From a virus: DNA of 37,769 nt. Position 1 is the stretch's first letter, and each line of letters opens with the position of its first letter. The notes under the pieces were generated by a model that was not told the DNA's origin, made no database searches, and saw only the letters and a list, made by a program, of their open reading frames with translations. The stretch lies in the IMG/VR virus record IMGVR_UViG_3300045988_104068; one strand, given 5' to 3'. Shown in pieces: positions 12,405-20,074 of this stretch. Position numbers and translations under genes: made by a program.

Positions 12405-12653
12405 TCAGGCGGTCTCCTTGCCAAGACGCTGCTCCTTCTCCTGCTCGCTCAAAAGCTCGCGGGGGTCAACGTTCAGCGTGTCGGCAATGGCCTTGAGCGT
12501 CCGGGGGCTGGTGCCGCCCTTCTTTTTGATGTAGTAGTAGGTGGCCCGCTCAAGGCCAGCAGCCTGCATCAGCTCGGTAACATTTACTCCCCGTAAAATC
12601 ATCAGGGATTCAATTTTTTTCATGCTTACCTTCAAATTATCACCTTCTTTCAC
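12405..12653 (-). CDS. XRE-family HTH protein
   Basis: LRGVNVTELMQAAGLERATYYYIKKKGGTSPRTLKAIADTLNVDPRELL. The start may instead be the ATG at 12623 (MKKIESL). Confidence 0.7.
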   Translation of the reverse strand: MKEGDNLKVSMKKIESLMILRGVNVTELMQAAGLERATYYYIKKKGGTSPRTLKAIADTLNVDPRELLSEQEKEQRLGKETA

Positions 12654-13399
12654 GCTTCCAGCCGCTTTGCCCGGACATTCAGAAACTGGTTCACAAAGTA
12701 AATCTGTCCCTTCCCCGTGACTTTCGGGGTCTTGTTGATGCTGGTGTGGCCGTCCGAGTGCACCACGGTGGTCTCCTTGATCTCAAACAGGCACATTTCC
12801 ACGGCCCGCTGGGTGGGCATATTATAGTCGCTGCGCTTGGGGTCGCGGATCAGATAGCCGTGCTCCCGCATCCAGCTGAACAGCCGGTTCTGCCCGATCT
12901 GCACACCGTTCTGGCACAGCAGTTTTGCCAGCTCACCTACAAGGATGCTCTTCTTGCTGGCGCTTACAGCATCCGCAAAGATGCCCTTCGGGGTCAGCTC
13001 TGCAATCTGAGCGTCCTTGTGTTCCAGCTCGTCGTGGGCGGCAATAAGGGCCTGCGCCATCAGCTCCGCGCGGGAAAGCTGCGGGCGCTGTGCCAGCTGC
13101 TTCTCCATCTGGTTGAAGGCCTCGATGTACTTGAGCTTCCACTGCACGGCTTCCTTGCCGGTAAAGCCCATGGCCAGCAGGGAAAAGCCGTCGCGGTTCA
13201 TCAGGTACATGGTGGCCTTTTTGTTTTGAGCAGTGGTGTACTCGGTCTTGTGGAACATTTTGAGGAGAGCGCAATTTTGCGCCGTCAGATTTTTGATGGA
13301 GCGGAGCACATCTTTATGCTCTTTTCCGAATCGTTCGGCAACGTCCCGGCTGGATGCCACCGGTTCGCCGTTCTGGGTGGATAAGATGATGTCGTTCAT
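12650..13399 (-). CDS. ant: Antirepressor (Rha N-terminal domain + KilAC/ANT C-terminal domain)
   Basis: MNDIILSTQNGEPVASSRDVAERFGKEHKDVLRSIKNL (Rha-like). C-terminal LFSWMREHGYLIR...NMPTQRAVEMCLFEIKE...VTGKGQIYF (KilAC-like). RBS CAAGGAGGT. Confidence 0.8.
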   Translation of the reverse strand: MNDIILSTQNGEPVASSRDVAERFGKEHKDVLRSIKNLTAQNCALLKMFHKTEYTTAQNKKATMYLMNRDGFSLLAMGFTGKEAVQWKLKYIEAFNQMEKQLAQRPQLSRAELMAQALIAAHDELEHKDAQIAELTPKGIFADAVSASKKSILVGELAKLLCQNGVQIGQNRLFSWMREHGYLIRDPKRSDYNMPTQRAVEMCLFEIKETTVVHSDGHTSINKTPKVTGKGQIYFVNQFLNVRAKRLEA

Positions 13400-13416
13400 G
13401 GTGAATATGTACCTCC

Positions 13417-13445
13417 TTGTATTCACTTCACTTTCGCTGTAAAAT
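13417..13445 (+). promoter_or_regulatory. Sigma70-like promoter for 13475..14068
   Basis: TTGTAT-N17-TAAAAT, followed by AAAGGAGGTG. Confidence 0.55.
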
Positions 13446-14321: not shown

Positions 14322-14537
14322 ATGAGTGATGGAAATAAAATTCGGCACAATCTGGCACTTGCTTATGCAAACAACAAATTGCAGATTGCGTTGCAGCGCG
14401 GTGAGCGTCCGCAGGGTCTTGACTTGAATGACCCTGCACAGGCGGCCTGTGTACTGGCTTCTTGGTACAGCGACTGTCTGGAGCAACTAATCAATCTTGA
14501 GGATAGTAAGATTTATAGTCCCTCCAGCATGGATTAA
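14322..14537 (+). CDS. Orphan lysogeny-oriented small protein (71 aa)
   Basis: ATG after GGAAGGAGGTGG; helical, no family recognised. Confidence 0.6.
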   Translation: MSDGNKIRHNLALAYANNKLQIALQRGERPQGLDLNDPAQAACVLASWYSDCLEQLINLEDSKIYSPSSMD

Positions 14538-15627: not shown

Positions 15628-15649
15628 CTACATATAAGGAGTGATTCAA

Positions 15650-16279
15650 TTGAGCATCGCTGAAAATATTAAAAAAATCCGATTGGAACACGAGCTATCA
15701 CAGGCTGACCTTGGCAAGATTGCAGGTGTCAGCGACAAAGCGGTGTCCACTTGGGAACTCGGGATAAAAATACCTCGCATGGGCGCAGTGGAGAAAATGG
15801 CAAATTACTTTGGTATCCCCAAAAGTGCAATTTTGGATGATGCCCAGCCCGCTCCTGCATCCCGTCCCATCCCCCCGGGCTTTGAGCCGATGCCGAAGAT
15901 GAAGAAGATCCCGCTGATCGGAGCCATTGCCTGCGGGGAACCCATCACGGCAGAGCAGAACATTGAAAAAATGGTGGACGTGCCGGAGAACATCCGGTGC
16001 GATTTTTCCCTGACCTGCCACGGTGACAGCATGGTGGATGCCGGCATTCACGATAAAGACGTGGTGTATATCCGCATCCAGCCGGAGGTGGAGAACGGCG
16101 AGATCGCAGCGGTGCGCATTGATGGTGAAGCCACCCTCAAGCGGGTATATTACAACCCCGGCACGCTGACCCTGATGCCCGCAAACCCGGCTTATGCGCC
16201 CATGATCTACACCGGCCCCCAGCTGGAGGAGGTGCACATTGAGGGCAAGGCCGTAGGCTGGACACACTGGGTGGGGTAA
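15650..16279 (+). CDS. cI: CI-type repressor (XRE HTH + S24 LexA-like autopeptidase)
   Basis: N-terminal HTH IRLEHELSQADLGKIAGVSDKAVSTWE. C-terminal S24 motifs: IACGEP cleavage-site region, GDSM (Ser) and ATLKR (Lys). TTG start 7 nt after AAGGAG; the track start at 15641 abuts the RBS. Confidence 0.85.
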   Translation: MSIAENIKKIRLEHELSQADLGKIAGVSDKAVSTWELGIKIPRMGAVEKMANYFGIPKSAILDDAQPAPASRPIPPGFEPMPKMKKIPLIGAIACGEPITAEQNIEKMVDVPENIRCDFSLTCHGDSMVDAGIHDKDVVYIRIQPEVENGEIAAVRIDGEATLKRVYYNPGTLTLMPANPAYAPMIYTGPQLEEVHIEGKAVGWTHWVG

Positions 16280-17809: not shown

Positions 17810-17935
17810 TCCGAACCGCTTGCCCGAAGGCGTCACGGCTCTGTACAGTAGATTTTGGCGAACCTCTGCACAGACTATGATACCACCTCCGGGCAGGCTT
17901 GTCAAAGTGTACCCTTGTGTATGGAGGTGGATTTT

Positions 17936-19072
17936 ATGAAAAAACGGGTCAACACGGCGTTTTGGGTCGAGAAGGAAAGCCGCTGGTGCATCGCGGTGCA
18001 GAAGAACGGCACCCGCAAACGGTTTTACAGCAGCACGCCTGGCCGCACCGGCCAGCGGGAAGCCAACGCAAAGGCCGATGCCTGGCTTGACGACAGCATC
18101 CGGGACGGAAAAAAGAAGGTAGCTGCCCTCTATGCCCAGTGGGTAGAAGAACTGAAGCTGACTTGCGGGACATCCTATGTGACACAATGCCAGCGTTACG
18201 GGGACTGCTATATCCTGCCGACCTGTGGGAATATCCGCATTGACGAGTTAACCGAGGGCGATCTTCAAAAGGCCATTGACGTTTCGTTCCGGAAGCGCTC
18301 ACAGAAAAAGAACCAGCGCAAGCCCATCTCAAACCAGCCGTTGAGCCGAAAGACGCTTATGACGATCCGGGCTGCGGAAACCGCCTTTGTCAAGTGGTGC
18401 CGAAGGAACAAGTACACGACACTCTACCCCGACCTGTCTATCCCGAAGAATGCCAGGATGGGGAAACGCACAATTCTTCAGCCCACCGCCCTGAAGGTTC
18501 TGTTTAGCGTAGACACCCGCACCTACTATGGAAAGCTGGTATTTGATGAATATATCTACGCCTACCGTTTTGCAGTTGCGACCGGCCTGCGCCCCGGAGA
18601 GCTGATTGGCTTATGGTATGGAGACATCAAAGGGAACACGGTCAACCTTCGGCGCAGCATCAACGTGCACCGGGAACAGACGACCGGAAAAAACGAAAAC
18701 GCAATCCGCTCTTTTGACATGGGCAAGGAAGCTCGCGAGGCATACGAGGCACAGGTGCAGCTTCTGAAGGCTCAAGGTATGCTTCTGAACTACAATACCC
18801 CGCTGTTTCAGATCCCGTCAGAACACGCGCTCTATCGCCGCTGGGAATCCTACCAGGAAGCAAATGGGCTTGAGCCGAAAGTTTCACTTTACGAGCTGCG
18901 GCACACCTTTGTCAGTGTTGAATCCAGCGTCCTGACTGACAGCCAGCTGAAGATGCTCGTGGGCCATAGCAAGAACATGGACACTGCCGGAGTGTATCGG
19001 CACGAGCTTGACGGTCAGAGGGAAGATCTTGCTGCCGCTACCACCGCGGCATTCAAAAAGGCACAGGCCTGA
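17936..19072 (+). CDS. int: Tyrosine integrase
   Basis: ATG after GGAGGTGG. C-terminal catalytic region LRPGELIGL..., YELRHTFVSV, LVGHSKNMDTAGVYRH (R-H-R-Y pattern). Confidence 0.9.
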   Translation: MKKRVNTAFWVEKESRWCIAVQKNGTRKRFYSSTPGRTGQREANAKADAWLDDSIRDGKKKVAALYAQWVEELKLTCGTSYVTQCQRYGDCYILPTCGNIRIDELTEGDLQKAIDVSFRKRSQKKNQRKPISNQPLSRKTLMTIRAAETAFVKWCRRNKYTTLYPDLSIPKNARMGKRTILQPTALKVLFSVDTRTYYGKLVFDEYIYAYRFAVATGLRPGELIGLWYGDIKGNTVNLRRSINVHREQTTGKNENAIRSFDMGKEAREAYEAQVQLLKAQGMLLNYNTPLFQIPSEHALYRRWESYQEANGLEPKVSLYELRHTFVSVESSVLTDSQLKMLVGHSKNMDTAGVYRHELDGQREDLAAATTAAFKKAQA

Positions 19073-19075
19073 CTC

Positions 19076-19097
19076 TGGTAACAGTTTTGGTAACACT
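19076..19097 (+). repeat. attP arm-type repeat, left (TGGTAAC x2)
   Basis: TGGTAACAGTTTTGGTAACACT, nearly identical to 19285..19306. Confidence 0.7.
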
Positions 19098-19211: not shown

Positions 19212-19235
19212 GTTCGACTCCCATCGCCTCCACCA
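19212..19235 (+). other. attP core: copy of a host tRNA 3' end
   Basis: GTTCGACTCCCATCGCCTCCACCA is a T-loop, 3' T-stem, 7-nt acceptor strand, discriminator A and CCA. The upstream sequence is not tRNA-like. Confidence 0.7.
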
Positions 19236-19236
19236 T

Positions 19237-19280
19237 GAAAAAAGAACGCCATTTCGTTAGGAATTGGCGTTCTTTTCTTT
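19237..19280. terminator. Bidirectional intrinsic terminator adjacent to the attP core
   Basis: AAAAAAGAACGCCA-N13-TGGCGTTCTTTTCTTT: 9-bp stem with U-tracts in both orientations. Confidence 0.75.
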
Positions 19281-19284
19281 GTCA

Positions 19285-19306
19285 TGGTAACGTTTTTGGT
19301 AACACT
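19285..19306 (+). repeat. attP arm-type repeat, right (TGGTAAC x2)
   Basis: TGGTAACGTTTTTGGTAACACT. Confidence 0.7.
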
Positions 19307-19315
19307 ATTAAGTTT

Positions 19316-19657
19316 TCAGACTGCTCTCACCAGTGCATTATACAACATCTCAATGAACTGCACCGCGCTGGGCGCACCGGTCAGCGGATAGCCTGCCAGC
19401 TGCTGCACATACTCCGGGTTTGTGAGCCATGCACCTTTAGCTGCCCGGCGGACAGCGCTTTGAATCGCTTTTGGCTCACATCTTCTGCGGTCGGCGATAG
19501 GGGTATAGATATCTTTCTCCACGGCCTGCAGGCGGTCTTCCTGCTCACAGACCAGCTCAAGACACTGGCACAGGATACTGTAGACGCTCAGATTGCGTGT
19601 GATGCCCATCGGGCGCAGCAAATCATTGACCTGAGTGGACAATTCGGAAACGATCAT
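19316..19657 (-). CDS. Spo0A C-terminal (DNA-binding) domain-like protein without a receiver domain
   Basis: MGITRNLSVYSILCQCLELV...IYTPIADRRRCEPKAIQSAVRRAAKGAW...PSAVQFIEMLYNAL aligns by eye with B. subtilis Spo0A IGVPAHIKGYLYLREAI...[28 protein letters not shown]...PTNSEFIAMVADKL. Confidence 0.7.
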   Translation of the reverse strand: MIVSELSTQVNDLLRPMGITRNLSVYSILCQCLELVCEQEDRLQAVEKDIYTPIADRRRCEPKAIQSAVRRAAKGAWLTNPEYVQQLAGYPLTGAPSAVQFIEMLYNALVRAV

Positions 19658-19717
19658 AGTTGACACATCCTTTCTATGCGTCAACTCTAACCGAAAAATA
19701 CTTAAAATTTACCAATT

Positions 19718-19744
19718 ACGTCGATATACGTCGTAAAGCGTCGA
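19718..19744. promoter_or_regulatory. Three 10-bp-phased 0A-box-like direct repeats
   Basis: ACGTCGATAT / ACGTCGTAAA / GCGTCGAAAC. The cores CGTCGAT, CGTCGTA and CGTCGAA compare with the 0A box TGTCGAA. Confidence 0.5.
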
Positions 19745-19750
19745 AACATG

Positions 19751-19795
19751 CCAAACAAAAACAGCCCCGAGGAACCGTCAGGCTCCCCGGGGCTG
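19751..19795 (-). terminator. Minus-strand intrinsic terminator after the lysis module
   Basis: CAGCCCCGGGGA-N10-TCCTCGGGGCTG followed by TTTTTGTTTG. Confidence 0.7.
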
Positions 19796-19810
19796 CTGCT
19801 ATGTATGGGA

Positions 19811-20074
19811 TTACCGCTTGATACAGCGGTTCGTCAGCTTGCCGTATACATCCTCGTACAGCTCCTGCTTATCGCCGTTGTAGGTGTACTCAGCATAGAT
19901 TCCGTCACCTGCCACGGTGGTGGACAGCAATGCCTTATAGTTCTGGAGTGTCTTGCAGGCCCACACCACAAAGACATTTTCGAGGGTGATCTTCGTCTCA
20001 CGGTGGGCGTTGTACCACTCGACCAGTGCATTTTTGCAGATGCTTTCATATTCGGCCATGCCAGTAATAATCAC
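19811..20074 (-). CDS. Hypothetical protein (87 aa)
   Basis: GTG after AAGGAG. Its position downstream of the holin is common in Firmicutes phages. Confidence 0.6.
   Translation of the reverse strand: MIITGMAEYESICKNALVEWYNAHRETKITLENVFVVWACKTLQNYKALLSTTVAGDGIYAEYTYNGDKQELYEDVYGKLTNRCIKR

Follow-up and report, generated by a model that had tools for sequence, protein, structure and literature searches.

Bacterial Spo0A acts at tandem 0A boxes, as at abrB, and the spo0A gene is itself autoregulated. The bases G2, C4 and G5 of the box TGTCGAA are specifically contacted by Spo0A, the isolated Spo0A DNA-binding domain binds without phosphorylation, and in C. difficile a high-affinity 0A site lies ~75 bp upstream of the spo0A start codon (PMC3485338). 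Such sites are also found in phage DNA: footprints of Spo0A on phages phi29 and Nf cover tandem 0A boxes in a 7 + 3 bp arrangement (PMC2731898). Truncated spo0A homologs without a receiver domain have been reported in gut phages, and signal-independent action was proposed for them (Schwartz et al. 2023, mBio, PMC10294663). Here we describe a gene of this kind in a stretch of viral DNA of 37,769 nucleotides (nt) (IMG/VR record IMGVR_UViG_3300045988_104068; the whole stretch is called the window below), together with the array of 0A-box-like repeats that fills the space in front of it. We consider it reasonably probable that gene and array form a self-contained accessory module (a 'moron'), in which the array would be a cooperative operator for Spo0A-type domains, mainly for the phage protein itself (autoregulation) and probably also for phosphorylated host Spo0A (Spo0A~P). 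Domain identity, array statistics, conservation, the linkage of array and gene and the presence of a host Spo0A were computed; binding, the binder, the sign of regulation and targets in trans are what we infer.

With the homologs of Schwartz et al. the locus shares the restriction to the effector domain, the occurrence in gut phages and the idea of action independent of the phosphorelay. That report, however, deals with the proteins only, and boxes, promoters and autoregulation go unmentioned in it (PMC10294663). No other account of spo0A genes that are truncated or encoded by phages came up in a full-text literature search. The genes reported in 2023 were tied to phages of spore formers, whereas the family represented in the window is carried by Faecalibacterium phages, whose host genus is considered non-sporulating. 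Compared with bacterial Spo0A, the phage protein has the same fold (template modeling (TM) score about 0.8), and its boxes have the same core (G2, C4 and G5) and the same 7 + 3 bp head-to-tail spacing. It differs in lacking the receiver, in having QS for ER in the recognition helix and in having LAGYPL for LFGYTV in the helix that matches the sigma-A-activating/contact region of Spo0A, and its family has 5-8 phased boxes, compared with 1-4 for bacterial Spo0A. As in phi29 and Nf, consecutive 0A boxes lie 3 bp apart in a phage genome. In those phages, however, the boxes belong to origins and to promoters of the early and late classes and no Spo0A is phage-encoded, whereas here they are found only before a phage Spo0A-type gene.

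The phage protein and the array upstream of its gene

The features of the gene and its upstream region, by position in the window, are as follows.

19316..19657, minus strand: receiver-less Spo0A effector-domain gene, 113 amino acids (aa) (Pfam, PDB, AlphaFold2 with Foldseek)
19666..19674, minus strand: ribosome-binding site (RBS) GAAAGGATG, 8 nt upstream of the ATG, conserved across the family
19684..19689, minus strand: candidate -10 hexamer TAGAGT, within the conserved block TTTTCGGTTAGAGTTG (proposed from conservation)
19689..19755, minus strand: head-to-tail array of about seven units with a 10-bp period (shuffles, position weight matrix (PWM) scan, conservation)
19689-19715, minus strand: three weak proximal units in the 10-bp register
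19719-19725, plus strand: strong box CGTCGAT, 5/7 match to TGTCGAA
19729-19735, plus strand: strong box CGTCGTA, 5/7 match to TGTCGAA
19739-19745, plus strand: strong box CGTCGAA, 6/7 match to TGTCGAA
19749-19755, plus strand: fourth distal box TGCCAAA, in the 10-bp register

The phage protein is a complete Spo0A effector domain without a receiver, and is not Spo0A proper. The original prediction had aligned it by eye along the whole effector domain, and the profile search agreed: the protein matched the Pfam model Spo0A_C (PF08769) from end to end (profile positions 1-104 of 104, residues 10-109) with 64.7 bits and E = 8.5e-18, the gathering cut-off being 25 bits. No second Pfam domain, receiver included, was found in the 113 aa by the Pfam scan. 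The only PDB matches obtained with phmmer were the Spo0A C-domains 1fc3 and 1lq1. An AlphaFold2 model built from 18 family members (predicted local distance difference test score 87) has the six helices of the Spo0A effector fold, and Foldseek with this model again returned only 1fc3 and 1lq1 at E < 0.01 (TM 0.75-0.83, root-mean-square deviation 2.4 Å), the next match having E > 1. The NCBIfam equivalog model of Spo0A (TIGR02875) gave 38 bits against a curated cut-off of 200 bits and was matched only in its C-terminal part (model positions 147-253). This score and the absence of the receiver, with its phospho-acceptor Asp, set the protein apart from Spo0A proper. The gene also lies in a prophage between lysis genes and an attachment (att) site, and not in the chromosomal spoIVB-spo0A synteny, which the host has at a locus of its own, and the recognition helix, AIQSAVRRAA (KAIQSAVRRAAKGAW), is not the canonical one of Spo0A. 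Members of the family are named 'sporulation initiation factor Spo0A C-terminal domain-containing protein' at NCBI (e.g. WP_120019764.1), and the PHROGs entry for the family reads function unknown.

The open reading frame (ORF) as listed runs from 19316 to 19684 on the minus strand, and a TTG at 19684 is an alternative start that would give 122 aa. The ATG at 19657, preceded by the RBS, is the conserved start and gives the 113-aa protein. Longer annotations of family members exist, with 150-182 aa in databases and 172 aa for phage Aster. A reading of the repeats as the coding part of an N-terminally extended ORF was rejected on three grounds: an in-frame stop in the window, a unit spacing of 9-11 bp among relatives, and the conservation of RBS and ATG.

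The array occupies the entire spacer from the upstream terminator to the RBS (19689-19755). On the gene strand its unit is wTTnCGACryw, which corresponds to the 0A box TGTCGAA in reverse complement, and the 10-bp register runs GTTTCGACGC / TTTACGACGT / ATATCGACGT / AATTGGTAAA / TTTTAAGTAT / TTTTCGGTTA, with a further distal unit, TTTGGCATG, ahead of these six. The original prediction had picked out three 0A-like boxes at 10-bp spacing. These three were confirmed and are unique, although the array proved longer than they suggested. CGTCG repeated three times at exact 10-bp spacing (19719-19743) has no other match in the window and did not occur in any of 100 dinucleotide shuffles, even with one mismatch allowed; likewise, RCGTCGWWA has three copies in the window, all of which are the strong boxes. 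Each strong box retains the G2, C4 and G5 of the core TGNCGAA, and successive boxes follow head to tail with 3-bp gaps as an exact 10-bp repeat. The strong boxes are distal, at about -62 to -98 from the ATG, and the weaker units extend into the conserved block TTTTCGGTTAGAGTTG.

A scan of the 37.8-kb window with the family PWM identified one cluster (5 sites in 19696-19757) and no comparable cluster at the lysis-lysogeny switch or elsewhere. Two adjoining weak matches 10 bp apart in the early region (14339-14360, plus strand; AATTCGGCACAA and AATCTGGCACTT) are probably due to chance. No Rfam match was found in the array and gene region. With regard to the promoter, a TAGAGT/TAAAGT element is conserved 25-34 nt upstream of the ATG: relatives carry TAAAGT or TAAATT at the candidate -10, and the block TTTTCGGTTAGAGTTG is found in nearly all members at a fixed distance from the RBS. 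The array overlaps the probable promoter of the phage gene.

Conservation of the array and its linkage to the gene

The family comprises 151 close homologs, mostly of 112-116 aa. Its relatives were found at 80 IMG/VR loci and at 18 loci in GTDB species genomes, mostly labelled Faecalibacterium and including one F. intestinale isolate, and the isolated Faecalibacterium phage Aster encodes a member. Public assemblies list the exact 113-aa protein in 507 index blocks, and 1229 sequences belong to its cluster at 90% identity. From 80 distinct upstream regions we obtained 23 non-redundant ones (<85% mutual identity) for the analysis of the array.

The boxes are kept in homologous phages, as the original prediction needed them to be. 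The position, phase and orientation of the array are retained in relatives down to 57% protein identity, while single boxes drift. Across the 23 relatives, self-match at a shift of 10 nt was 0.424, compared with 0.265 ± 0.010 in shuffles, and at a shift of 20 nt it was 0.372. An iteratively refined matrix of 138 sites reads wTTnYGRCRYwT, the core of which is the reverse-complemented 0A box (frequencies in 0A-box numbering: G2 0.83, C4 0.80, A7 0.87). Adjacent sites (n = 115) were most often 10 bp apart (64), with 15 at 9 bp and 6 at 11 bp. When boxes were counted strictly, allowing at most one mismatch to TGTCGAA with G2, C4 and G5 retained, 22 of the 23 relatives had at least one. The 28 boxes found all have one orientation, pointing away from the gene, and compare with 5.0 ± 2.0 expected for both orientations pooled. 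A perfect TGTCGAA is present at the equivalent position in 4 of the 23. Among 22 near-identical variants of the window version, the substitutions all lie outside the CGAC cores, either in the weak proximal units or in the stretches that separate boxes, which is weak evidence because the substitutions are few.

The GenBank 'complete genome' of phage FP_Lugh (MG711464.1, 33948-34075, corresponding to L001 1-128; L102) stops inside the array, where the RBS and the Spo0A_C gene would start, and the gene was not found in that record. The record opens with host tRNA sequence and appears to be a prophage excerpt one gene short.

The surroundings of the gene and array in the window contain the following features.

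19748..19797, minus strand: intrinsic terminator of the late/lysis operon (stem 19760-19797, U-run 19748-19759)
19240..19276, both strands: bidirectional terminator hairpin between the gene and the attP core (about -20.5 kcal/mol on both strands)
19212..19235, plus strand: attP core, 24 nt equal to the 3' end of the host transfer-messenger RNA (tmRNA) gene ssrA (identity to the last 24 nt of the tmRNA in the relative L091)
17855..19072, plus strand: tyrosine integrase on the other side of attP (Pfam Phage_integrase and Phage_int_SAM_3)
15641-16279: CI-like repressor with helix-turn-helix and S24 parts, in the switch region
12650-13426: antirepressor, in the switch region
19811-20074, minus strand: DUF6275 protein (106 bits), between an SPP1-type holin and the terminator
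821-896 and 32923-32999, minus strand: tRNA-Trp(CCA) and tRNA-Lys(TTT)

That two terminators bound the gene, as for a transcription unit of its own, and that it has a place at the prophage end beside the attachment site had both been proposed, and the two terminators and the place at the prophage end were confirmed. Hairpins are present on either side, at 19760-19797 and 19240-19276. Behind the 17 pairs of the upstream hairpin (-34.6 kcal/mol, z = -5.9) comes UUUUUGUUU; this late-operon terminator is predicted to insulate the Spo0A_C module from upstream transcription. The downstream hairpin (z = -5.3 and -5.9 on the two strands) can terminate in both directions because an A-run and a T-run flank it; after integration, the transcripts of the rebuilt tmRNA gene and of the Spo0A_C gene would both end there. 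L091 has a homologous hairpin behind its tmRNA. In five long contigs Spo0A_C is the last prophage gene, the order being tail genes, M15 endolysin, holin, DUF6275 and Spo0A_C, and in integrated copies it lies 81 nt from the convergent tmRNA gene, beyond which come smpB, recR, ybaB and dnaX. The window itself encodes an integrase, a CI-like repressor, an antirepressor, a holin and an M15 endolysin, as a phage or prophage does. The DUF6275 family is annotated in Faecalibacterium phage Taranis too, and it is missing in the prophage variants of two contigs (L237 and L241), where the module comes directly after the holin.

The array is joined to the gene and not to the attachment site. In phage Aster the 3' end of the gene borders on the integrase, while a tRNA-like att sequence lies upstream of the array; with the att site on the far side of the array, the linkage is with the gene rather than with attP. 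Across prophages, the neighbors of the module include tmRNA, tRNA-Tyr, tRNA-Ala, tRNA-Leu or a large serine recombinase. Some relatives with wholly different upstream genes and no terminator still keep the array. Conversely, in scaffolds MT837129 and MT835756 the homologous late-operon terminator is followed directly by the tRNA/att sequence, without array and without gene. Since array and gene are present, absent and moved together, terminator, array, gene and terminator act as one insertable module. With terminators on both sides and presence or absence among related phages, this unit is, on the genomic comparison, probably a self-contained accessory module or moron of a temperate Faecalibacterium phage. 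One further contig (L239, 6420-7901) has the terminator-array-gene module, with an identical protein, at a place where the neighbor is a large serine recombinase and not a tyrosine integrase with a tmRNA site.

Stand-alone Spo0A_C proteins and the Spo0A of the host

A profile search of 1.84 billion cluster representatives gave 1971 matches at E <= 1e-3. The best 150 of these are almost all 100-150 aa long and include no receiver-containing Spo0A, which argues that stand-alone Spo0A_C proteins are an old and diverse group and not recent truncations. The closest relatives of the phage protein are thus hundreds of stand-alone proteins of ~110 aa, and not full-length Spo0A. Most stand-alone relatives have the canonical VERNIRT helix, compared with an invariant IQSAIRR in the family of the phage protein.

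We collected VERNIRT-type genes with a degenerate DNA pattern, and the 100 stand-alone genes obtained fell into 26 clusters. A near-consensus box was present within 160 nt upstream in 13 of the 26, compared with 4.8 ± 2.1 in shuffles, and a perfect TGTCGAA in 9, compared with ~0.5 expected; 18 boxes were forward and 1 reverse, and they are concentrated at -90..-107 and at -42. In one set of loci (L103, L105, L106, L112 and the metagenome loci L113-L232), the distances to the start codon are about -90 to -107 for forward-oriented TGTCGAA and -42 for TGTCGTA. The enrichment in the 26 clusters indicates that boxes ahead of stand-alone Spo0A_C genes are general. The VERNIRT-type families, known from gut viromes and metagenomes, resemble the family in the window in their length of ~110 aa, their AGYPL motif and their upstream 0A boxes, but they have 1-2 forward boxes (18:1) rather than 5-8 reversed boxes (28:0) at strict 10-bp phase. 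By sequence, then, the window's family is a many-box, strictly phased and opposite-orientation variant of a general arrangement.

Several other proteins carry 3-5 tandem Spo0A_C domains in one chain: P0133 (439 aa), P0134 (454 aa), P0140 (394 aa), P0152 (350 aa) and P0234 (849 aa). A number of these have the canonical VERAI helix, and domains joined covalently head to tail would fit phased tandem 0A boxes.

The assignment of the host genus as Faecalibacterium rests on the GTDB labels of the relatives and on the isolated phages Aster and Lugh. Two contigs (L237 and L241) carry a different prophage with an identical Spo0A_C protein, integrated at a tRNA-Leu gene. Directly downstream of this tRNA gene lie a spoIVB-like gene (Peptidase_S55 + PDZ) and a gene for a 269-aa protein with Response_reg and Spo0A_C domains. 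This host Spo0A has Asp at the phospho-acceptor position (VVLLDAFMPGLD) and the same recognition helix as B. subtilis Spo0A, and the 4051 sequences in its cluster at 90% identity are in keeping with a gut species of very high abundance. Less than 2 kb separates the phage copy from the host spo0A on these contigs (L237 6001-9153, L241 6001-8787), which may be coincidence. The region upstream of the host spo0A has no array comparable to that of the phage, with PWM scores <7 bits. Faecalibacterium is regarded as non-sporulating, and spo0A and spoIVB are still present in the host genome. On spo0A in this genus, the literature yielded only UniProt-style 'Spo0A homolog' names in a proteome paper. 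As far as could be found, the phage protein is of a known kind, while the phased array, the generality of boxes among stand-alone Spo0A_C genes and the occurrence in phages of a non-sporulating genus that bears spo0A are new.

Another, abundant Spo0A was seen in gut metagenomes. P0260 (261 aa; cluster of 1351 sequences; GC ~50%; loci L131, L135, L151, L177, L199, L232, L233 and L234) lies in the canonical recN-spoIVB-spo0A synteny. It has Asn in place of the phospho-acceptor Asp (DLVILNATMAGSDG), lacks the N-terminal acidic pair and has the VERNIRT helix; from its sequence it looks like a chromosomal Spo0A with a pseudo-receiver.

Probable binders of the array and their possible consequences

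The original prediction had left open whether the phage protein or host Spo0A~P controls the gene, and from sequence either or both could do so, since the prophage-bearing contigs encode a full-length Spo0A with a canonical helix; for the same reason host Spo0A~P is a realistic second binder. In the autoregulatory account that we favor, the phage effector domain would bind DNA independently of phosphorylation because it has no inhibitory receiver. Spo0A-type domains would line up next to each other along the array, all on the same face of the DNA, with one box per helical turn. The phage protein is the most likely main binder and would thereby exert feedback control on its own level. Because the strong boxes are distal and the weak ones run into the probable promoter, our guess is that low occupancy, limited to the distal boxes, would activate transcription and that an array filled as far as the promoter would repress it. 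Host Spo0A~P probably binds as well, which would tie expression to the stationary-phase signal of the host and might provide the trigger. The product would act in trans on host 0A-box promoters, independent of the phosphorelay, and could either activate these promoters or merely occupy them. We place autoregulation first because the sites are found only at the gene's own promoter and the module moves as a unit, and because the same logic recurs in unrelated stand-alone families and in the 0A sites upstream of bacterial spo0A, as in C. difficile.

Several observations speak against this account. The recognition helix of the family is invariantly AIQSxIRRAA (with Q66, S67, R70 and R71 invariant), compared with VER(A/N)IR in Spo0A and in most stand-alone relatives. 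The departure from bona fide Spo0A concerns two adjacent positions, so that the same specificity is not to be assumed, and the residues changed there (E213/R214) are ones that we take to contact bases in the 1LQ1 complex. The phage protein may prefer a somewhat different site, and the canonical host Spo0A might fit the boxes better. Covariation of helix and box within the family has no test power here, since the helix is invariant. No sigma-70 promoter was called on the gene strand by a simple consensus scan, and the candidate -10 has a poor -35 at 17 bp, with a TTGG-type element at ~20 bp; the candidate resembles in this respect Spo0A-dependent promoters such as spoIIG, which have over-long spacers. 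Finally, the phased T-tracts of the array would by themselves produce curved DNA.

The best of the other explanations is that the array is primarily a sensor of host Spo0A~P and is not bound by the phage protein; the stationary-phase signal of the host would then turn the gene on or off, in the way that phi29 is under the control of host Spo0A through 0A boxes. We regard this as possible, if rather unlikely. Contigs with the identical phage protein do encode the 269-aa Spo0A beside spoIVB, with its helix as in B. subtilis, and the family consensus box is the canonical TGTCGAA while the phage helix is non-canonical. There is also precedent, in that host Spo0A binds consecutive 0A boxes in phi29 and Nf (PMC2731898). 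If the phage responded to host Spo0A, however, boxes would be expected at its lysis-lysogeny switch, and neither there nor at any other phage promoter apart from that of the Spo0A_C gene were they found. Autoregulation is the simplest reading where a transcription-factor gene follows sites of its own family's type, and other stand-alone families with different hosts also have upstream boxes. Control by host Spo0A~P would in any case leave room for autoregulation too.

It is very improbable that the periodicity reflects only intrinsically curved, UP-element-like DNA, in which phased T-tracts boost the promoter with no specific binder. Tracts phased at 10 bp bend DNA, and each unit opens with TT(T) (matrix frequencies T2 0.88 and T3 0.87). 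The non-T core, however, is equally conserved (G 0.80 and C 0.83 on the gene strand) and spells the 0A box, and curvature leaves unexplained the 28-to-0 orientation, the perfect TGTCGAA boxes and the exclusive association with a Spo0A-domain gene.

We give least credence of all to the repeats serving integrase or excisionase as arm-type sites, or serving a different phage protein, for example DUF6275 or CI, as operators. The array is no more than ~500 bp away from attP, and direct repeats are typical of arm sites. It remains with the gene, however, despite changes of att site, integrase type and upstream gene, the CI/switch region has no similar cluster, and a different and better-placed repeat pair, GGTAACnnTTTTGGTAACACT, flanks the core and recurs at other att sites. 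The two copies of this direct repeat, at 19077-19097 and 19286-19306 on either side of the attP core, are likely the arm-type sites of the integrase, judging from their recurrence by the att sites of relatives integrated at tmRNA (L091) and at tRNA-Leu (L241).

The autoregulatory account can be extended to a phosphorylation-independent latch, which we offer as a speculation of doubtful standing. A pulse of host Spo0A~P, or basal expression, would fire the promoter via the distal boxes; the phage protein would then sustain and cap its own synthesis via this array and would seize or block the residual Spo0A regulon of a host that no longer sporulates. The 0A boxes ahead of stand-alone Spo0A_C genes would then mark a widespread, hitherto unrecognized and self-wired class of 'orphan effectors' in phages.

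Phage-borne receiver-less spo0A was reported in 2023 purely as an observation of gene content. This locus supplies a conserved candidate binding site adjoining the gene, which brings the question of what such proteins bind within reach of a direct test on a single small protein and a single short piece of DNA. In public assemblies the module is very common, and if its protein rewires the Spo0A regulon of the host, the prophage would shape the physiology of a keystone commensal.

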